This document shows, piece after piece, positions 1,738 through 35,316 of a stretch of 64,000 bases of DNA. Each line of letters opens with the position of its first letter. Position 1 is the first letter of the stretch. The position numbers and the translations under genes were made by a program. The stretch is from Patescibacteria group bacterium (GTDB lineage Bacteria > Patescibacteriota > Patescibacteriia > Buchananbacterales > UBA6539). Under the pieces are notes generated by a model that was not told the DNA's origin, made no database searches, and saw only the letters and a program-made list of their open reading frames with translations. The stretch is taken from contig JAVEXP010000002.1 of the NCBI GenBank assembly GCA_034003985.1, positions 11,206 through 75,205 on the forward strand, given 5' to 3'.

Positions 1738-2082
1738 AATCATAAGTATTGTCATATCCTGACTTTACCGGAGCCCAAAGCTTAATTGCCGCGGGCTTCT
1801 TTTTTTGCCCTTTTGACCGATCTGGCCTGTGACTGTTATAATGTAGATAACTTCACTTCCGAAAATTGGTTAAAGTTTTGGGACAAACTTTATCAGTAGG
1901 GATTCAAAATCGTCATTAGCCTTTGGCTGGTTGACTGCGATCCCCAACGCCAAATGCGACGCGCCAAGCGCCTAGAAAGTCTTAATTGATCTTCTTAGCG
2001 GGCGGCAACTCGACAGGGCAGGCTGAATACAGCCAAAAGCTTTGGCCAGTTTGGAGTGGAGTTTAGGTTTTCAAACTTGCTC

Positions 2083-2130: not shown

Positions 2131-2913
2131 ATGGATAATCAATTTGCGCCAATTATTGATGCCGCCCGCCAGGGCGGGGAACAGCTCAAAAAATATTTTG
2201 GGCGGCATTTGGATATTATTAATGAAAAGCTTGGCCCCGCCGACCTGCAAACCACGGCTGATTTGGAAAGCGAGCGGGCCGTTTTGGCAATTTTAAATAA
2301 GCATTACCCCGATTATAATATTTTTTCCGAAGAAGTCGGGATGATTGACCGCGGTTCGGATTTTACTTTTTATATTGATCCGTTGGATGGTACTAATAAT
2401 TTTGTTTTGGGTATTCCTTATTTTTCCTGTTCAATTGCTTTGGTTCAGGGTCATAATGTCATCTTCGCTGCCGTCTATTCGCCAATCACCGACAATTTAT
2501 ATTATGCTCAGCGCGGCCAAGGGGCGTTCTTAAATAGTCAACCAATCAAAGTGAATGTTGAAACCGCAATTGACCGTTGCACGGTTGGGTATAACACTGG
2601 TTATGATGTTTCCGATGAAGAAAATTTAAAAATTACCAGACCAATTTTAGCGTTGGATATCAAAAGACTTTTAATCAATTGGTCGCCGGCGCTTGATTTA
2701 TGTTTGTTGGCCAGCGGCCGAATTGAAGCGATTGTTGTTAATCGGGGAGAGTGGCATGATTTTTTGGCCGGGCACCTGATCGCCCAGGAAGCCGGCGCTA
2801 TTATTACTGATTTTTTCGGTCAAGTTCGCGAGCATGATCAGGTTAAAAGTTTTGTGGTGGCAAACTCCTCGGCTGTTTCCCAAAAAATTGTTTCAATTGC
2901 CAAGGATTTTTAA
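2131..2913 (+). CDS. suhB: inositol monophosphatase family protein (SuhB/IMPase-like)
   Basis: IDPLDGTNNF metal-binding motif and overall IMPase architecture. 260 aa. Confidence 0.8.
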   Translation: MDNQFAPIIDAARQGGEQLKKYFGRHLDIINEKLGPADLQTTADLESERAVLAILNKHYPDYNIFSEEVGMIDRGSDFTFYIDPLDGTNNFVLGIPYFSCSIALVQGHNVIFAAVYSPITDNLYYAQRGQGAFLNSQPIKVNVETAIDRCTVGYNTGYDVSDEENLKITRPILALDIKRLLINWSPALDLCLLASGRIEAIVVNRGEWHDFLAGHLIAQEAGAIITDFFGQVREHDQVKSFVVANSSAVSQKIVSIAKDF

Positions 2914-2919
2914 TTTCTT

Positions 2920-2996
2920 CGGGCTGTAGCGCAGTTGGCTAGCGCGTACGCATGGGGTGCGTGAGGTCGCGGGTTCGAGTCCCGCCAGCCCGACCA
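2920..2996 (+). tRNA. tRNA-Pro (anticodon GGG)
   Basis: Manual cloverleaf: acceptor CGGGCTG/CAGCCCG, D-arm GCGC/GCGC, anticodon stem TACGC/GCGTG with loop ATGGGGT (GGG), T-arm CGGGG-TTCGAGT-CCCGC, 3' CCA encoded. Confidence 0.85.
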
Positions 2997-3000
2997 TTTG

Positions 3001-3080
3001 TCATTCTGAGCGAAGCGAAGAATCTGCGAAGCGAAGAATCTGCGAAGCGAAGAATCTGCGAAGCGAAGAATCTGAACAAT
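3001..3080. repeat. tandem repeat, 16-bp unit GCGAAGCGAAGAATCT x about 4.5, preceded by TGTCATTCTGA
   Basis: Read directly. The core TGTCATTCTG(A/G)GCG.AGCGAAGAATCT recurs at 35236-35316, also next to a tRNA. Confidence 0.8.
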
Positions 3081-3124
3081 GGAATGAGAAAGATGGGCGG
3101 GGATGACAATAAATATTAATTAGT

Positions 3125-3604
3125 ATGGATCAAGTCTTGAAGCTTCTGGATCAACTTAATATCCCGTATCAAAATTATGAACACCCCGCAGTTTTTACCG
3201 TTGCTCAATCAACTCAGTTGAAGACCGATATTCCCGGCGCCAGCACTAAAAATTTATTTCTACGCAATCAAAAGAAAACCAGTTATTACCTGGTTTTAAT
3301 TTTAGCCAACAAGACCGCTGATCTTAAAAAATTGGCCGCTGATTTGGGGGAAGACCGTTTAAGCTTTGCTTCATCCGACGATTTGAAAAAATTTTTAGGG
3401 CTGGTTCCCGGTTCGGTTTCGGTCTTTGGTCTGATTAATTGTCAATCCAAAAATCTTAAAGTTATTGTTGACAATGACTTTTGGCAATATGACCAAATTG
3501 GCTTTCACCCTAATGACAATCGTGCTACAACGGTTATTGCGACCAATGACTTGAAAAAATTTTTAGTTTCAAGACCTCAGGAAATTTTGTTTAAAAACCT
3601 TTAG
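3125..3604 (+). CDS. YbaK/ProX-type aminoacyl-tRNA (Cys/Ala-tRNA-Pro) deacylase
   Basis: 159 aa matching the YbaK/ProX trans-editing fold, including STKNLFLRN and GLVPGSVSVFG segments. Sits immediately downstream of tRNA-Pro. Confidence 0.7.
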   Translation: MDQVLKLLDQLNIPYQNYEHPAVFTVAQSTQLKTDIPGASTKNLFLRNQKKTSYYLVLILANKTADLKKLAADLGEDRLSFASSDDLKKFLGLVPGSVSVFGLINCQSKNLKVIVDNDFWQYDQIGFHPNDNRATTVIATNDLKKFLVSRPQEILFKNL

Positions 3605-3624
3605 TTTAATGCTATGGTTAAGCT

Positions 3625-4218
3625 ATGAACAAATATCCTTATAAGTTTACGCCAACGGAATACGACCTTGATGATTTAATAAAAAAACGCTGGAGTCCGG
3701 TGGCTTTTTCGGCGCAGCCAATTGAAATGGAAAAAATAAATTCATTGTTTGAAGCAATGCGTTGGGCACCGTCTTCGCGCAATGAACAGCCTTGGCGGAT
3801 AGTTTATGCTACCCGGGATAACGAGCAGGAATTTAATGTCCTGGCTGATTTATTGGATGAAGGTAATAGTTATGCCAAAGATGCTTTTTTGCTGTTGGTG
3901 ATTTGTGGCTTGCGCCATCATAACTACCATCACAAACCCAATCGGACTTATCAATATGATACGGGCGCTGGCGCACAAAATTTATTTTTACAAGCAGTTA
4001 GCCTAGATTTGGTGGCTCATGAAATGGGCGGGTTTGATATCAAACGATCTTATGAAGTTTTAGGCATTCCAAAGGAAGAAGTTGAAGTCATCGCTATGAT
4101 TGCCGTCGGTCATCCCGGTGATGAGTCCAAGCTTAGTCCGCAGTTCCAAGCCAAACAGTCTGAACCCAGAAATCGCCAGCCGATTTCGGATTTTGTCTTC
4201 AAAGGTAGGTGGCGATAA
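3625..4218 (+). CDS. nitroreductase family protein
   Basis: Nitroreductase fold signatures (RWSPVAF, SSRNEQPWR). 197 aa. Confidence 0.7.
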   Translation: MNKYPYKFTPTEYDLDDLIKKRWSPVAFSAQPIEMEKINSLFEAMRWAPSSRNEQPWRIVYATRDNEQEFNVLADLLDEGNSYAKDAFLLLVICGLRHHNYHHKPNRTYQYDTGAGAQNLFLQAVSLDLVAHEMGGFDIKRSYEVLGIPKEEVEVIAMIAVGHPGDESKLSPQFQAKQSEPRNRQPISDFVFKGRWR

Positions 4219-4236
4219 TTATGGTATAATGATTTT

Positions 4237-4566
4237 ATGGATATTTTATTAAAAAGTGTTATATCTGGTTTAGTTACCGCAGTAATTTTGTTTATTGCTA
4301 AATTTTCCGGACCAAAGTTGGCAGGTGCTATTGGCGGGATACCAATTGTTTTTGCTGTTTCCTATATTTTGTTGACCTTGAACGACAAAACTGTTGCCCG
4401 TAATTTTTTGATTGGGGGGGTATATGGAGCAATCGCGGCTATATTCTTTAGTGTTGCTTTAATTATTCTTAATTCTCAATTCAGGACGCATTGGCTAAAT
4501 TTTACTGTTGCTTATGTTTTGTGTTTCTTTTTTGCTTTGTTGATGGTTTATCTCACATCAAAATAA
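4237..4566 (+). CDS. small integral membrane protein (3 predicted TM), unknown function
   Basis: Hydrophobic 109-aa ORF. Confidence 0.45.
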   Translation: MDILLKSVISGLVTAVILFIAKFSGPKLAGAIGGIPIVFAVSYILLTLNDKTVARNFLIGGVYGAIAAIFFSVALIILNSQFRTHWLNFTVAYVLCFFFALLMVYLTSK

Positions 4567-4570
4567 TAAG

Positions 4571-4643
4571 TACAAAAAAACTAAGTAATTTTTACTCAAT
4601 TAAAAGTTTCAAGCTAAGGATTGAAAAATTACTTAGTTTTTTG
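4571..4643. terminator. 20-bp perfect inverted repeat (ACAAAAAAACTAAGTAATTTTT / AAAAATTACTTAGTTTTTTGT) between convergent genes; candidate bidirectional terminator
   Basis: Read directly. Flanked by A/T runs on both sides and overlaps the last codons of rpmB. Confidence 0.4.
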
Positions 4644-4826
4644 TTTGGTTGATTTAGTGGCGGCTTTAGCCAGGGTCTTTAAACAGCTGGTGCAGACCAA
4701 CATTTTTTTGCCGTCAATCTTTTTGCTTTGCAAATTGATCTTTTGGCGTCTGATGGTTTTGATGTTGGAATGGCTTTTCCAGTTGGCCTTCAATGGCTCG
4801 CGGCCGCAAATTTCACAATTAGCCAT
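4629..4826 (-). CDS. rpmB: 50S ribosomal protein L28
   Basis: MANCEICGREP...SHSNIKTIRRQKINLQ...CTSC matches the L28 consensus including the Zn-ribbon cysteines. Confidence 0.8.
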   Translation of the reverse strand: MANCEICGREPLKANWKSHSNIKTIRRQKINLQSKKIDGKKMLVCTSCLKTLAKAATKSTKQKTK

Positions 4827-4905
4827 ATAATCGTTGAATAGTTAATGATGCTAATATAGCAGAGCCGTTTAAAAAAATCAAGTCTTGTGTTATATTAAAG
4901 TAACT

Positions 4906-5556
4906 ATGTCAGGTATAATTTTTTTAATTTTTATCGTTGCCTTTATTCTGTCGGTGATTTTGCACGAAATCGCCCATGGTTATGTGGCTAACCATTTTGG
5001 CGATGATACCGCCAGGATTATGGGGCGTTTGTCGCTTAATCCGCTGGTTCATATTGACCCAGTCGGTTCAGTTTTGGTGCCGCTGATGTTGTATCTTTCC
5101 AGCGCCGGGTTCTTGTTTGGTTGGGCCAAGCCCGTGCCGGTCAATCCTTTCCGGCTCAAAGGGGGAGTGGTGGCTTATCGTTGGGTAACGGTTGCTGGTG
5201 TGGCAACTAATTTTGTCTTGGCTGTTGTTTCGGCCTTAATTTTGAAGATTACCTCTCAGTATCTGGGAATTTCTGGCAATAATCTTGGCATCATCTTCTT
5301 TAGCTCTTTAATGCAGGTTAATTTGGTTTTGGCGATTTTCAACGCCTTGCCGTTGCCGGGTTTTGATGGTTGGAATTTTTTAGGAACTTTTGGTCCGGTC
5401 AGTCGTCTGGTCAGCCGAACCCAATTGGCCAACCCTTTGTTTATGGCTCGCTACGGTTTGGTGGTTTCGCTGGTTTTGCTGTTTTTATTTATGCCGCTGA
5501 TAAGCTATATTTTTGCCTTAGTCTACACATTTTTTATTAAGTTTTTCGGTTTATAA
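4906..5556 (+). CDS. site-2 protease family (peptidase M50) membrane metalloprotease
   Basis: HEIAHG (HExxH) inside a TM segment plus a downstream LPLPGFDG (LDG-type) motif. Start taken at the ATG at 4906. Confidence 0.7.
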   Translation: MSGIIFLIFIVAFILSVILHEIAHGYVANHFGDDTARIMGRLSLNPLVHIDPVGSVLVPLMLYLSSAGFLFGWAKPVPVNPFRLKGGVVAYRWVTVAGVATNFVLAVVSALILKITSQYLGISGNNLGIIFFSSLMQVNLVLAIFNALPLPGFDGWNFLGTFGPVSRLVSRTQLANPLFMARYGLVVSLVLLFLFMPLISYIFALVYTFFIKFFGL

Positions 5557-23956: not shown

Positions 23957-24514
23957 ATGGCTTCATATCAAGCTCAGGGAATTGTTTTAAAACAAACTGA
24001 TCATCAGGAAAATGATCAGCTTTTTACTATTTATACCCAGCAGCTTGGCAAAGTGATTGCTTTGGGGCGAGGGACTAAAAAAATTAACAGTAAACTTAAT
24101 TCCCATCTTCAACCTTGGTCGGTTGTTAATTTGCTGATTGCCAAAGGCAAAAACTACGATCATGTCGCCGGCGCGGTGATGATTAAAAATTTTTCAAATT
24201 TACGAACTGACCTTAAAAAAATTGTTTTAGCCAGCTTTGCTTTGGAAGTCATTGACAAATTGACCAAGACCGAAGAGGCTGATGACAAAATTTTTAATTT
24301 ACTTTTAAAATATTTGTTTGTCTTGGATACTAATGATTTTTCCCAAGTCGACTGGCAGTTGATTAAAAAAGCTTTCACTGTTAAGTTGCTGACACTCTTG
24401 GGATTTGGCCCAAGTCAAAATATCATTAATGATGATTTTAAATTGGATGATTTTTTAACCAATCAGCTTGAGTCTGAGCTTAAAACTAAGCGTTTTTTTT
24501 CTTATTTAAGCTAA
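23957..24514 (+). CDS. recO: RecO-like DNA repair protein (short form)
   Basis: N-terminal OB-fold region resembles RecO (QGIVLK...GRGTKK...LQP). Low similarity overall. Confidence 0.5.
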   Translation: MASYQAQGIVLKQTDHQENDQLFTIYTQQLGKVIALGRGTKKINSKLNSHLQPWSVVNLLIAKGKNYDHVAGAVMIKNFSNLRTDLKKIVLASFALEVIDKLTKTEEADDKIFNLLLKYLFVLDTNDFSQVDWQLIKKAFTVKLLTLLGFGPSQNIINDDFKLDDFLTNQLESELKTKRFFSYLS

Positions 24515-24524
24515 GTTTCAAGTC

Positions 24525-24553
24525 TTGACTTATATTTAGGTTTGTAGTAAAAT
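24525..24553 (+). promoter_or_regulatory. near-consensus sigma70 promoter (TTGACT - 17 nt - TAAAAT) for the GC-rich island gene
   Basis: Read directly. Followed by AGGAGG at 24561-24566. Confidence 0.45.
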
Positions 24554-24575
24554 AGACCGAAGGAGGTTGTGAACA

Positions 24576-25892
24576 TTGACAACCTTGGAATTAACGGCAC
24601 GAGCCGTTATTTTTTTGTGTCATTTTGGCAGGAAACTGGCAGGAAACCTAAACGGAGGATCAGCAGGTATGCCGAATTCAAAGAAAAAAGCAGCAGTAAC
24701 AGTCAAAGCGGAAGACCTTGGAAAGTGGTATCCGCTTGACCCCTACGCCCAAGGGTTCATGGACATGGCGATGGAGAATGGAGGCTTCATCAACTTCCAT
24801 AGCCATCTTGATCGGGCTTACACCTTGGCTCCGGAGTACCTGGAGCACATCGGGACAACGCCCCTGGAAATGGCTGGCGCTCCGCTGACCGTCAAGCAGC
24901 AGGCGGTGGGTAATATCCATCGCGGCAAGGCCTATACCGAAAGCGACTTGCGCGACCGGGTATCCTTGGTCTTGCGCCACTTGATCGCTTACGGTACCAC
25001 GGAGTGTTGGACCTGCGTCGATACCTGTCCGGGCATCGCCGAAGAAGGTCTCTTGGCCTGGCGGGTGATGCGGGAGCTTCGGGAGGAATTCCACGACCGG
25101 ATTGTTCTCAAAGTGGGACCGAGTCCGATTTTCGGTCTCAAACAGGGCAGCGGTCGTTGGGAAACCTATCAGGCCGCCGCGCAGTCGGCCGATTTCTTGA
25201 CGGGGTTGCCGGAAAAGGACGATTTTGATGTCAATAATGGCCGTCTTCATCGCGACGGCAAGGTTGGTTTCGAGCAGCATGTTCGGCGTTTGGTGCAATT
25301 GGCTTGTGACAGCAATAAGGAGCTGCATCTCCATTTGGACCAGACCGGTGAACCGACCGAACACGGCACCTTCCGCACCATTGATGTGATCGATACGATG
25401 GAGCAGGAGGTGATCGACTGGGTGATTGGTGATGGCATTCATCCCAAGATCTGGGCGGTTCACATGTTGTCGCCGTCCTCGTATTCCGAGGAGAAGTTCC
25501 GGCGCTTGCTTGATGCCCTGCTGCGCCTGAATATCGGGCTGATCGTCTGCCCGACGGCGGCGGTGTCGATGCGCCAGCAGCGTCCGGTGATGGTGCCGAT
25601 GCACAGTAGCATCGCACGGATGCTGGAGTGTCTGAAAGTTGGTGTCAAAGTCCGGTTCGGATCGGACAACATCAACGACATGATGGTTCCCGCGGGTGAC
25701 GGTAACATGTGCACCGAGATTTTGCGGGTAGGAACCCATGTACTGCGCTGCTATCTGTCGCAGGTGTTGTCCAAGTTGGCCGCCGGCGTTGCCCTCAACG
25801 AAGTTGACCGCGCCCGGATCGGCAACGCTCTGTACCAGGACCGGCAAGCCTGGGCCAGACTCAACCCCGGATTCCAAGCGGCGGTCGAATAA
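24576..25892 (+). CDS. amidohydrolase superfamily protein, cytosine-deaminase (CodA)-like
   Basis: INFHSHLD (HxH), LHLHLDQTGE, VHMLS, and FGSDNINDMMVPAGDGNM aligning with the CodA FGHDDVFDPWYPLGTANM region. About 60% GC. TTG start with AGGAGG RBS; an alternative ATG start lies at 24669. Confidence 0.7.
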   Translation: MTTLELTARAVIFLCHFGRKLAGNLNGGSAGMPNSKKKAAVTVKAEDLGKWYPLDPYAQGFMDMAMENGGFINFHSHLDRAYTLAPEYLEHIGTTPLEMAGAPLTVKQQAVGNIHRGKAYTESDLRDRVSLVLRHLIAYGTTECWTCVDTCPGIAEEGLLAWRVMRELREEFHDRIVLKVGPSPIFGLKQGSGRWETYQAAAQSADFLTGLPEKDDFDVNNGRLHRDGKVGFEQHVRRLVQLACDSNKELHLHLDQTGEPTEHGTFRTIDVIDTMEQEVIDWVIGDGIHPKIWAVHMLSPSSYSEEKFRRLLDALLRLNIGLIVCPTAAVSMRQQRPVMVPMHSSIARMLECLKVGVKVRFGSDNINDMMVPAGDGNMCTEILRVGTHVLRCYLSQVLSKLAAGVALNEVDRARIGNALYQDRQAWARLNPGFQAAVE

Positions 25893-25914
25893 GACCGTGT
25901 TCCTTGCCTACCAG

Positions 25915-25962
25915 CTCCGTTTCGTTCAACCTACGGGTTAGACGAAACGGAGTATTTTTTTA
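25915..25962 (+). terminator. rho-independent terminator (CTCCGTTTCGT...ACGAAACGGAG + TATTTTTTT)
   Basis: Read directly, 23 nt after the amidohydrolase stop. Confidence 0.6.
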
Positions 25963-26004
25963 TAAAAAATTTGACCTAGCCGAAGTTATAGCGACGGCTA
26001 GGTC
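25961..26004 (-). terminator. stem-loop GACCTAGCC...GGCTAGGTC, followed on the minus strand by a T-rich run; terminator for the convergent minus-strand ORF
   Basis: Read directly. Confidence 0.4.
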
Positions 26005-26477: not shown

Positions 26478-27932
26478 ATGTCCAGAATCGCCATTGCGGA
26501 GGTGGTCGAAAAAGCCGGTCAAAAAGTAACGGTTTCAGGCTGGGTTCATGCCCGCCGTGATCATGGCAAGATTATTTTTATTGATTTGCGCGATCGTTCG
26601 GGGCTACTTCAGATTGTATTTGAGCCAAAATTTGAGCAGGCCCATACCTTAGCCAATAATCTTCGTTCGGAATTTGTGGTGGAAATTCAGGGTAAGATCA
26701 ACAAGCGTCCGGATAATATGATTAACGATAAAATCCTTACCGGCACAGTGGAAATGACTGGCGAAGACTTAAAAATTTTAAACGAAGCCAAAACTTCGCC
26801 TTTTGAAATTGATAAAGATACCAGCGATGTTGGCGAGGAAATCAGGCTCAAATATCGTTACTTGGATCTGCGGTCAGAGCGGATGAAGAATAACATGGTA
26901 ATGCGTTATCGGGTAACTAAGTTTATTCGCGATTATTTGGACAATCAGGGATTCTTGGAAATTGAAACCCCGATTTTAACCAAAGGCACGCCTGAAGGCG
27001 CCAGAGAATTTTTGGTTCCTTCCAGAATTTGGCCGGGACAGTTTTATGTTTTGCCCCAATCGCCCCAGCAGTTCAAGCAGCTTTTAATGGTGGCTGGCGC
27101 AGAAAAATATTTTCAGATTGCCAGATGTTTCCGCGATGAAGACACCAGGGGAGATAGGCAGGCCGAATTTACCCAGCTTGATCTGGAGATGAGTTTTGTT
27201 GAACAAGAAGATATTTTTCAGCTGATTGAACCAATGATGATCGAATTGGTTGAGACACTGTATCCTCAGAAAAAAATTACGGCCAAGCCCTTTCCTCGGC
27301 TGACTTATGCGGAGTGTATGGAAAAATACGGGACCGACAAGCCTGACTTAAGAAAAAATAAGGAAGATGGCAATGAGCTGGCTTTTATGTGGCTGATTGA
27401 CCCGCCGATGTTTAAATATTCTGAAACCGAAAAAAAACTGGTGGCCAGTCATCATCCTTTTACTATGCCTAATTTGGAAGACATGGAAAAGAATCCAGAC
27501 CAGCCTAGAGAGTGGCGAGCTTATGGTTATGACTTGGTTTTAAATGGTTTTGAAATTGCCGGCGGCTCAATCAGAATCCACCGTCGTGATATTCAGCAAA
27601 AAATCTTTGAGCTTTTGGGAGTTGGCCAAAAAGAAATTGAATCCAGGTTCGGCCACATGCTTGAAGCTTTCAGCTTCGGTGCGCCGCCTCATGGCGGGAT
27701 TGCCCCGGGTATTGATCGGATTATGGCGATTTTGCAGAATGAGCCCAACATTCGAGAGGTGATTGTATTTCCTAAAACCGGGGACAGCCGTGATTTGATG
27801 ATGGGCGCGCCAAGTCCAGTTAGTTCCAAAGCTTTGAAAGAGGCTAATGTCAGGATATCCGATGAAGCCATTGCTCAAGCCAAGGAAAAAGGAGAAAATC
27901 TCGAAGGTTTTGATACGGCCATGGCCGATTAA
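26478..27932 (+). CDS. aspS: aspartyl-tRNA synthetase, bacterial-type catalytic core but short (484 aa, apparently lacking the GAD insertion domain)
   Basis: N-terminal OB domain, motif 2 FRDEDTRGDRQAEFTQLDLEMSF, motif 3 GGIAPGIDRI. Confidence 0.9.
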   Translation: MSRIAIAEVVEKAGQKVTVSGWVHARRDHGKIIFIDLRDRSGLLQIVFEPKFEQAHTLANNLRSEFVVEIQGKINKRPDNMINDKILTGTVEMTGEDLKILNEAKTSPFEIDKDTSDVGEEIRLKYRYLDLRSERMKNNMVMRYRVTKFIRDYLDNQGFLEIETPILTKGTPEGAREFLVPSRIWPGQFYVLPQSPQQFKQLLMVAGAEKYFQIARCFRDEDTRGDRQAEFTQLDLEMSFVEQEDIFQLIEPMMIELVETLYPQKKITAKPFPRLTYAECMEKYGTDKPDLRKNKEDGNELAFMWLIDPPMFKYSETEKKLVASHHPFTMPNLEDMEKNPDQPREWRAYGYDLVLNGFEIAGGSIRIHRRDIQQKIFELLGVGQKEIESRFGHMLEAFSFGAPPHGGIAPGIDRIMAILQNEPNIREVIVFPKTGDSRDLMMGAPSPVSSKALKEANVRISDEAIAQAKEKGENLEGFDTAMAD

Positions 27933-29312: not shown

Positions 29313-29972
29313 ATGGCTATTCCCAAAAGTACCAAAAATTATTTGGACAAAAAAATGGCCAAATATGATGAGTTGACCCACAAGACTGTTTATACCGCTT
29401 ATGATGCCGCCCAGACTTTAAGGCGGGAGCTGAGAGAGATTGCCAAAAGCTTGCTGGTGGCAACCGACAAAGCTTATGTGATTGCGGTGCTGCCGGCTCA
29501 TATGAGAATTGATATGGTTAAACTAAAAAAGTCGTTGCGGGCCAGGAAAGTCAGTATCCCCAACGAGAAGGTGATGGTCAAAGTTTTCAAGGTTAAGCCC
29601 GGTTCAATGACGGCCTTCGGCGGGCTTCATAAAATTGAAGTGGTGGTTGATAAAAGCTTGCTTAAGGTTAAGGATGTTATTTTGTCAGCCGGGAGCTTTA
29701 CCGATTCGGTGCGGATGAAGACTAAAGATTTTATTGATTTGGAACAAGCCAAGTTGGTGAATTTCGCCAAAGCCGGTGGCTATAAGTTGACAGCCAAATC
29801 AAAGGCTAAACCAAAAAAGAAAAAAGCATTAGCTAAAAATAAACCGCTGATTAAAAAAAATGTTAAGAAACCGGTTCGTAAAGTTGTCAAAAAAACCGCC
29901 AAGTCAAAGGCGGCCAAAAAGACTGTAAAGATGAAGAAGAGTAATACTAAGAAATTAAAACAGAAAAAATAG
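29313..29972 (+). CDS. YbaK/ProX-like deacylase domain fused to lysine/alanine-rich histone-H1-like C-terminal tail
   Basis: Residues about 40-150 fit the YbaK pattern (KSLLV...AVLPA...KLKKSL...KPGSMTAFGG...VVVDKSL...SAGS). The last 60 aa are a KAKPKKKK-type repeat tail. Confidence 0.55.
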   Translation: MAIPKSTKNYLDKKMAKYDELTHKTVYTAYDAAQTLRRELREIAKSLLVATDKAYVIAVLPAHMRIDMVKLKKSLRARKVSIPNEKVMVKVFKVKPGSMTAFGGLHKIEVVVDKSLLKVKDVILSAGSFTDSVRMKTKDFIDLEQAKLVNFAKAGGYKLTAKSKAKPKKKKALAKNKPLIKKNVKKPVRKVVKKTAKSKAAKKTVKMKKSNTKKLKQKK

Positions 29973-35235: not shown

Positions 35236-35316
35236 CATGCAAATTGTCATTCTGGGCGCAGCGAAGAATCTCTTTGATTCTTCGGTCACTTCGTTCCCTC
35301 AGAATGACAATTTGGT
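35236..35316. repeat. palindromic element: 16-bp perfect inverted repeat CCAAATTGTCATTCTG / CAGAATGACAATTTGG enclosing GCGCAGCGAAGAATC; related to the 3001-3080 repeat
   Basis: Read directly. Lies between rpmG and tRNA-Trp. Confidence 0.7.

Follow-up and report, generated by a model that had tools for sequence, protein, structure and literature searches.

Most bacterial prolyl-tRNA synthetases (ProRS) edit in cis, by means of a domain named INS, and a trans-editing factor beside an INS-less ProRS is a textbook arrangement. ProXp-ala, which acts on Ala-tRNAPro, is a single domain of about 160 amino acids with representatives of solved structure in Caulobacter (CC_0111; 5VXB, 1VJF), Agrobacterium (Atu3699; 1VKI) and human (PRORSD1; 8HUZ). 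In the Caulobacter enzyme, K45 contacts A76, while K50 and R80 contact the first base pair (PMC10164551); C1:G72 and A73 of tRNA-Pro are required by ProXp-ala (PMC3973320). A review from 2024 describes the factors of the INS superfamily as single-domain proteins and notes that trans-editing domains generally come without RNA-binding appendages, with the exception of the C-terminal domain of plant ProXp-ala (PMC11295145). The latter raises tRNA affinity (PMC9425024), and lysine-rich extensions of aminoacyl-tRNA synthetases likewise aid tRNA binding (PMC8319005).

Here we describe two genes of this superfamily in a stretch of 64,000 nucleotides (nt) from a Patescibacteria group bacterium (assembly GCA_034003985.1, contig JAVEXP010000002.1, positions 11,206 to 75,205 of the forward strand), hereafter the window. 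The first open reading frame, ORF1 (3125-3604), follows a gene for tRNA-Pro(GGG); the second, ORF2 (29313-29972), ends in a polybasic tail. The original prediction, made from the sequence of the window, regarded both as YbaK/ProX-type deacylases, took the neighborhood of tRNA and enzyme for a striking adjacency and the presence of two editing factors for a sign of a fidelity problem. Our analysis presents the flagged locus as an ordinary ProXp-ala gene that belongs to the expected genomic background, and the second paralog as the more interesting gene.

ORF1 and the type of its synthetase

PF04073 (tRNA_edit) is the sole domain of ORF1 and is matched over its complete length (model positions 1-123 of 123; E-value 3.4e-30, 105 bits against a cut-off of 25.5 bits). 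The check by hidden Markov models that accompanied the original prediction, namely whether the frame at 3125 matches a non-deacylase family, thus returned an editing domain. The nearest solved structures, both aligned along the whole length, are Agrobacterium Atu3699 (1vki, 2.8e-28) and Caulobacter ProXp-ala (5vxb, 1.3e-27), and human PRORSD1 (8huz) is matched with 2.4e-14. Similarity to YbaK structures is marginal (H. influenzae HI1434, 1dbu, 3.3e-4; E. coli, 2DXA, 0.21), the curated YbaK models TIGR00011 and PRK10670 give 41.7 and 12.9 bits against cut-offs of 153 and 243, and a ProRS model aligns to ORF1 via its INS region only (25 bits). In the alignment with the Caulobacter crescentus protein, K42, R47 and R78 of ORF1 take the places of K45, K50 and R80, the second being a change from Lys to Arg; G63, K71 and G84, which PMC10164551 names, served as reference points for the numbering. 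K42 is invariant among 32 homologues of ORF1, and many homologues bear the JGI name "Ala-tRNA(Pro) deacylase".

The neighboring tRNA-Pro(GGG), which both ARAGORN and Rfam call at the place where it was originally proposed, has C1:G72 and A73, and its CCA end is encoded; C1:G72 and A73 are also present in the tRNAs of three relatives. Because of the full-length domain, the nearest structures, the missed YbaK models, the three residues and the acceptor end of the tRNA, ORF1 is assigned by sequence to the ProXp-ala-type deacylases, with a predicted activity on Ala-tRNA(Pro). The original classification of the two genes was correct at the level of the INS superfamily, PF04073 being present in both, and has to be corrected for ORF1, which is ProXp-ala and not the Cys-tRNAPro deacylase YbaK. 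The latter candidate is ruled out by 41.7 against 153 bits for TIGR00011 and by 3.3e-4 against about 1e-27 for ProXp-ala structures. YbaK has its fold and conserved Lys in common with both ORF1 and ORF2, yet neither of them is a YbaK equivalog. ORF1 differs from usual ProXp-ala in a loop, which reads PGSVSVFG instead of PGSVSPFG, and in the position of its gene directly 3´ of a tRNA-Pro gene in the clade of the window.

We suggest that ORF1, recognizing C1:G72 and A73, would bind tRNA-Pro at its acceptor end and hydrolyze Ala misattached by ProRS, replacing in trans the INS domain. The partner synthetase has to be sought elsewhere. No ProRS was found in the window, either by Pfam searches on all open reading frames of at least 425 amino acids or by tblastn with ProRS of E. 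coli, T. thermophilus and Patescibacteria, and tblastn found none in the fetched loci of close relatives. When the T. thermophilus query was run against all fetched loci, a single match was obtained, in a metagenome-assembled genome of Levyibacteriota (L004); the match is 63% identical to the query, which was taken as validation of the query sequence. In L004, ProXp-ala (4002-4481) is followed by an INS-less, Thermus-type ProRS (4513-5318) which starts 32 nt further 3´ and runs off the contig end. As a neighbor of ProXp-ala, this ProRS is more informative than tRNA-Pro.

The full-length ProRS among the 120 best matches to the L004 fragment all measure 445-471 amino acids and carry PF00587, PF03129 and PF09180, with PF04073 in none, but the query is itself INS-less and INS-type ProRS elsewhere in Patescibacteria are compatible with this search. 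The matches come from Gottesmanbacteria, Microgenomates, Parcubacteria, Paceibacterota, Saccharimonadales and CPR3, and a few from phyla outside the Candidate Phyla Radiation (CPR), namely Calditrichota, Gemmatimonadales, Marinimicrobia and Longimicrobiales. Judged from these proteins, short INS-less ProRS are widespread in Patescibacteria, and the lineage of the window most likely has a short ProRS of Thermus/archaeal type without INS as well, which would be the usual setting of a ProXp-ala. A literature search on ProRS in CPR/Patescibacteria returned nothing relevant. The guess of an INS-less ProRS, made together with the original prediction, was probably right when extrapolated from other Patescibacteria; what it would describe is a normal arrangement rather than an anomaly, and the fidelity problem that was read from the two editing factors loses its ground. 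The view of the flagged locus changes little: it would be a further case of the rule that joins INS-less ProRS with ProXp-ala, extended to Patescibacteria.

A separate observation concerns the bacterial-type aspartyl-tRNA synthetase of the window, which has 484 amino acids and matches a model of 590 positions as two stretches. This would fit a lost insertion domain and would be another case of synthetase streamlining.

The tailed paralog ORF2

ORF2 encodes 219 amino acids, with PF04073 at residues 23-143. It gives 53.9 bits with TIGR00011 (cut-off 153) and 30.9 bits with PRK10670 (cut-off 243). When a profile of the ORF2 family was compared with the PDB, the best match was Legionella pneumophila lpg1207 (3op6; 2.1e-49, 171 bits, about 27% identity, whole length), then E. 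coli YbaK (9e-19, 71 bits), with INS at 59 bits, ProXp-x at 56-59 and ProXp-ala at 44-49; E. coli YeaK/ProXp-ST1 was aligned by hhalign with an E-value of 1e-19 and 23% identity. Among the compared subfamilies (YbaK, ProXp-x, INS, ProXp-ala and ProXp-ST1), sequence similarity places ORF2 in an uncharacterized, 3OP6-like branch of the INS superfamily. The 3OP6 protein itself is uncharacterized; unlike ORF2, it has 152 amino acids and is tail-less.

The domain bears the marks of a constrained protein. K45 is kept in at least 90% of 64 diverse family members, and the AlphaFold2 model built from the alignment of these 64 sequences reaches a pLDDT of at least 95 over residues 1-155. The modeled domain resembles YbaK, ProX and ProXp-ala structures (Foldseek TM 0.77-0.90), although the Foldseek ranking fails to resolve the INS subfamilies for ORF2. 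In the 120 closest homologues the domain is 64-86% identical, far above the conservation of ProXp-ala in the same genomes. The gene order aspS, small open reading frames, ORF2, scpA, scpB is kept in relatives; because these are close, little functional information can be drawn from the context. In some distant relatives (P0434, P0443 and P0459), two or three editing domains follow one another within a single protein of 303-491 amino acids.

The basic tail, to which the original prediction had drawn attention, was upheld and proved to be conserved. It is the most basic stretch of 30 amino acids in the window, ribosomal proteins being next, and it has no secondary structure in the model (pLDDT about 65). 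About 115 of the 120 closest homologues have a tail of 17-65 amino acids with about 50% Lys/Arg, which starts with GYKLQxKPKKK and then varies freely. Among representatives clustered at 50% identity, 1,666 proteins match ORF2; a basic tail of up to 104 amino acids is present in 56 of the 71 that score at least 90 bits and in 17 of 65 more distant ones, most of the others being tail-less proteins of about 154-160 amino acids. Of the named examples, one tailed protein is Patescibacterial and one tail-less protein comes from Bryobacterales.

We propose that ORF2 acts as a second deacylase of the INS superfamily, whose Lys/Arg tail most likely adds unspecific affinity for tRNA (or rRNA). By analogy with the plant ProXp-ala C-terminal domain and with the Lys-rich extensions of eukaryotic aminoacyl-tRNA synthetases, likewise segments appended to an editing or charging enzyme, the tail is probably a tRNA-binding appendage. 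The likeness has its bounds: the plant segment is a folded dimerization domain, whereas the ORF2 tail is a disordered, low-complexity run of Lys/Arg, 12-104 amino acids long, bacterial and attached to another subfamily. Architecturally the tail is a modest novelty, its candidate function is obvious, and it is the only mildly new feature of this analysis. Still, it contradicts the current summary of INS-superfamily factors as single domains without RNA-binding appendages. If the tail does tether the protein to tRNA or the ribosome, a free-standing editing domain would gain the RNA affinity it otherwise misses, and the tailed family could make up for the loss of several cis-editing domains in streamlined synthetases. 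The tailed 3OP6-like paralog, strongly conserved and common among Patescibacteria, is a reasonable candidate for biochemistry on translation accuracy in reduced genomes.

Linkage of tRNA-Pro(GGG) and ProXp-ala

The statement that the deacylase directly follows the tRNA holds insofar as ORF1 is the next gene; a spacer of 128 nt separates the two. Upstream, the stop codon of the inositol-monophosphatase family gene (imp) lies 6 nt before the tRNA, which means that tRNA-Pro is placed within a string of genes and not behind a promoter of its own. One weak promoter-like site is found upstream of imp (2083-2110). In the spacer, no terminator and no match to the sigma-70 promoter consensus was detected (host promoters may differ from it), and a tandem repeat that occupies part of the spacer (3010-3074) shows no T-run and no significant structure (fold z = -0.73 for the spacer). 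A DNA motif search identified this repeat as the expanded arm of a palindromic motif that recurs at 35244-35310. The motif, GTCATTCTG(A/G)GCG(A/C)AGCGAAGAATC, has one arm expanded 4x in tandem at 3000-3090, after tRNA-Pro, and forms a long imperfect palindrome at 35244-35310, after rpmG; it looks like a repetitive extragenic palindromic (REP)-like element.

Tight linkage occurs in four genomes: the window, GCA_041662625.1 (L082), GCA_041643025.1 (L084) and the P0008 genome (L085/L086). They are family-level relatives, with 81-85% identity in elongation factor G (EF-G) and 56-76% in ProXp-ala, and have a common gene order of an element resembling a noncoding RNA (ncRNA), tRNA-Pro(GGG), ProXp-ala, a variable gene, an M50 peptidase, rpsL, rpsG, fusA and tuf. 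The variable slot 3´ of ProXp-ala contains a HAD hydrolase, GreA or nothing in the relatives. In L084 and L086, the ATG of ProXp-ala stands 6 nt past the tRNA end "...CCCGACCA", which leaves no space for a promoter and implies co-transcription.

Other loci give a different picture. We surveyed species representatives for relatives of ProXp-ala and inspected the best 80 of 592 confirmed loci; tRNA-Pro was upstream of the gene in none of the 80 and 2.2 kb downstream in one. Another tRNA stands just upstream in three of them (Arg-GCG at 12 nt, Gln-CTG at 9 nt, Ser-GCT at 68 nt), the Arg and Gln cases coming from two other Patescibacteria. As tRNA-Pro makes up about 5-7% of tRNA genes in a typical complement, the chance of one Pro in four independent tRNA-adjacent placements is about 0.2. 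Twelve further loci of the clade were retrieved by scanning metagenomes with the upstream-ncRNA motif, and in all eight with enough sequence tRNA-Pro(GGG) comes next after the ncRNA. ProXp-ala lies 3´ of the tRNA in just two, duplicates of L082 and L086, and was not found downstream of it in L095, L096, L097, L098, L100 and L103. Of these, L098 is close to L082 (ncRNA 96% identical, flanks 87-93%). In place of 484 nt of L082 (9977-10460, the body of ProXp-ala) it has 38 nt (2745-2708), and homology returns within the final 20 nt of ProXp-ala. The body of ProXp-ala was deleted here and the tRNA retained, so either the enzyme is dispensable or a second copy is present. Since the ncRNA stays with tRNA-Pro where ProXp-ala is gone, the stable partner of the tRNA is the ncRNA and not the enzyme.

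The adjacency, which the original prediction had called striking, is thus real and narrow. It is best read as an inherited local operon layout, a family-level synteny that was repeatedly broken, and in statistical terms chance, together with shared transcription, would suffice; gene-neighbor arguments from a single genome can mislead, as this pair illustrates. We suggest that tRNA-Pro(GGG) and ProXp-ala would be parts of one dense transcription unit that precedes the rpsL-rpsG-fusA-tuf cluster and that tRNA and enzyme probably share a transcript, in view of the close imp stop codon, the spacer devoid of promoter and terminator matches, the 6-nt gaps in two relatives and the 9-12 nt of the Arg and Gln cases. 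In relatives with the 6-nt spacer, 3´ processing of the tRNA would yield an almost leaderless ProXp-ala mRNA. A comparable tRNA-mRNA co-transcription unit is thrU-tyrU-glyT-thrT-tufB of E. coli, in which a protein gene lies on a tRNA-led transcript and is released by tRNA processing. It differs from the presumed present one, where the tRNA is the enzyme's own presumed substrate and the spacer goes down to 6 nt.

Inherited gene order is not the only conceivable reason for this pairing. ProXp-ala might be kept on the transcript of its substrate so that its dosage is tied to the supply of tRNA-Pro(GGG), and such a selected module would fit the persistence of the pair, despite changing neighbors, in genomes with only 56-64% identity in ProXp-ala (81-85% in EF-G), as well as the ATG only 6 nt after the tRNA in two genomes. 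We nevertheless find it unlikely, since no locus among the 80 repeats the order and three have other tRNAs, one Pro among four tRNA-adjacent placements would come by chance in about one case of five, six clade loci with ncRNA and tRNA-Pro show no ProXp-ala downstream, and a near relative of L082 has lost the body of the gene. Moreover, what ProXp-ala recognizes is the acceptor stem, presumably common to all tRNA-Pro isoacceptors, and a link to GGG has no obvious logic. The tRNA-Pro gene is a classical hotspot of integration, and ProXp-ala may also be imagined as having arrived there on integrated DNA. The incomplete and nested copies of tRNA-Pro that relatives carry, together with long inverted repeats around this tRNA, would suit such an integration scar, as would a slot 3´ of ProXp-ala that is filled differently in each genome. 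But no integrase or recombinase was seen nearby, L098 is without the gene through deletion rather than non-insertion, and variable genes occur 3´ of ProXp-ala, but none separates it from the tRNA end. On these three grounds we rejected the gene as island cargo and hold this origin of the locus to be very unlikely.

ORF2 too can be explained otherwise. It might be the functional YbaK of the lineage, a Cys-tRNAPro deacylase which completes a "triple sieve" together with ProXp-ala and ProRS. TIGR00011 YbaK_EbsC is the best NCBIfam model for all 64 family members (best E-value 4.3e-22), E. coli YbaK is the second-nearest solved structure, and homologues are annotated as YbaK/EbsC by their sources; according to PMC6344894, both Ala and Cys are mischarged by ProRS, which counts in the same direction. 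Nevertheless, ORF2 remains at 53.9 bits where 153 are required, and by their best E-value the other family members likewise stay far from equivalog level. The family, with 171 bits for 3op6 and 71 for YbaK, stands much nearer to the former, and YeaK/ProXp-ST1 is roughly as near as YbaK. We view the YbaK assignment as possible and rather doubtful. The tail, whose composition is like that of H1 and bacterial histone-like tails, might instead point to a nucleoid or DNA-binding, histone-H1-like protein with a vestigial editing fold, and old structural-genomics titles of relatives do read "oligo-nucleotide/DNA-binding protein". These depositor titles are older than functional work on the fold, however, and a domain 64-86% identical in the 120 closest homologues, with K45 and other motifs nearly invariant, speaks for a constrained enzyme; a DNA-binding role appears highly improbable.

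We therefore return to the explanation developed above, in which ORF1 is ProXp-ala working with an INS-less ProRS, shares a transcript with the tRNA through inherited gene order, and coexists with a tailed 3OP6-like deacylase. As a whole we consider it likely, though several points weigh against it. That the ProRS of this genome is INS-less is an extrapolation from Patescibacteria other than its closest relatives. On the side of expression, co-transcription of tRNA-Pro and ProXp-ala, probable as it is, is deduced from gene layout; the 128-nt spacer may harbor an internal promoter for ORF1 if promoters of the host deviate from the sigma-70 consensus. The pair is kept while flanking genes turn over, and selection could be the cause. 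Finally, ORF2 is about equally similar to YbaK, ProXp-x, ProXp-ST1 and INS, which favors no particular aminoacyl substrate. More tentative are two further readings, one in which a Patescibacteria-wide family of tailed 3OP6-like trans-editing factors is tethered to tRNA or the ribosome, the other in which processing of a substrate tRNA generates a near-leaderless ProXp-ala mRNA in this clade; we hold them to be possible but less likely than not.

Upstream RNA, unusual tRNA genes and other features

In its organization the window resembles Patescibacteria (CPR) genomes, with genes almost all on a single strand, a GC content of about 42% and tight packing. Features of the two loci are collected in Table 1.

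Table 1. Positions of the features discussed, numbered from the first nucleotide of the window
Feature	Position	Strand	Basis
Inositol-monophosphatase family gene (imp)	2131..2913	+	PF00459, E 1.1e-46
tRNA-Pro, anticodon GGG	2920..2996	+	ARAGORN; Rfam RF00005, 61.3 bits
Perfect tandem repeat, 4.1 x 16 nt, GCGAAGCGAAGAATCT	3010..3074	+	TRF
ORF1, 159 amino acids, one domain; trans-editing deacylase of ProXp-ala type, predicted to hydrolyze Ala-tRNAPro	3125..3604	+	PF04073
Nitroreductase-family gene, 20 nt 3´ of ORF1	3625..4218	+	PF00881
Aspartyl-tRNA synthetase (aspS), conserved upstream neighbor of ORF2	26478..27932	+	NF001750, 675 bits; synteny in L090, L092
ORF2, INS-superfamily editing domain, 3OP6/lpg1207-like branch, conserved Lys K45	29313..29777	+	PF04073, 6e-25
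ORF2, C-terminal polybasic tail, 64 amino acids, 47% Lys/Arg	29778..29969	+	Tail statistics, 120 close and 136 distant homologues

The ncRNA candidate upstream of tRNA-Pro is a conserved, structured and unannotated element of about 215 nt (1849-2066, plus strand). On its 5´ side lies a promoter-like sequence (1813-1842; 11 of 12 positions of the sigma-70 consensus, extended -10) and on its 3´ side a terminator composed of a hairpin and a T-run (2072-2100). Homologues are present in 14 other loci, and an alignment of 11 sequences displays compensatory changes in 26 of 59 predicted pairs. No Rfam family was matched, either at the gathering threshold or with E-values up to 10.

Several relatives harbor unusual tRNA genes in the same region. 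An "outer" tRNA-Pro(GGG) is interrupted after anticodon position 35 in L082 (9553-9976), L086 (5165-5440) and L098 (3060-2750, minus strand); L098 has a second interruption, after position 43. The insertions are bounded by inverted repeats CCCCGC...GCGGGG, and the first of them contains a complete "inner" tRNA-Pro(GGG) with its acceptor stem lengthened by a helix of 12-17 bp. ARAGORN in intron mode did not call the interrupted outer genes of the relatives. They may contain introns, elements resembling intervening sequences, or mobile insertions. The tRNA-Pro of the window is of the outer type, uninterrupted and with an identical T arm. In L084, an 87-nt "tRNA-Stop(tta)" (3614-3700) combines a tRNA-Pro-like C1:G72/A73 end with an 18-nt hairpin where the anticodon loop would be, and an 81-nt tRNA of L086 (3489-3569) is called with the four-base anticodon "cttt".

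Arrays of "CAGTTAAC"-type repeats directly precede tRNA genes in L084 (3540-3612 and 4990-5075), L086 (5075-5160) and L096 (9795-9875) and are absent upstream of tRNA-Pro in the window; they may represent promoter or regulatory arrays. Finally, two patches of the window, 1-2000 (GC 0.53) and 24001-26000 (0.495), are richer in GC than the rest (about 0.42). They contain a DAHP synthase gene (559-1737) and an amidohydrolase-like frame (24576-25892), respectively, and may be acquired DNA.

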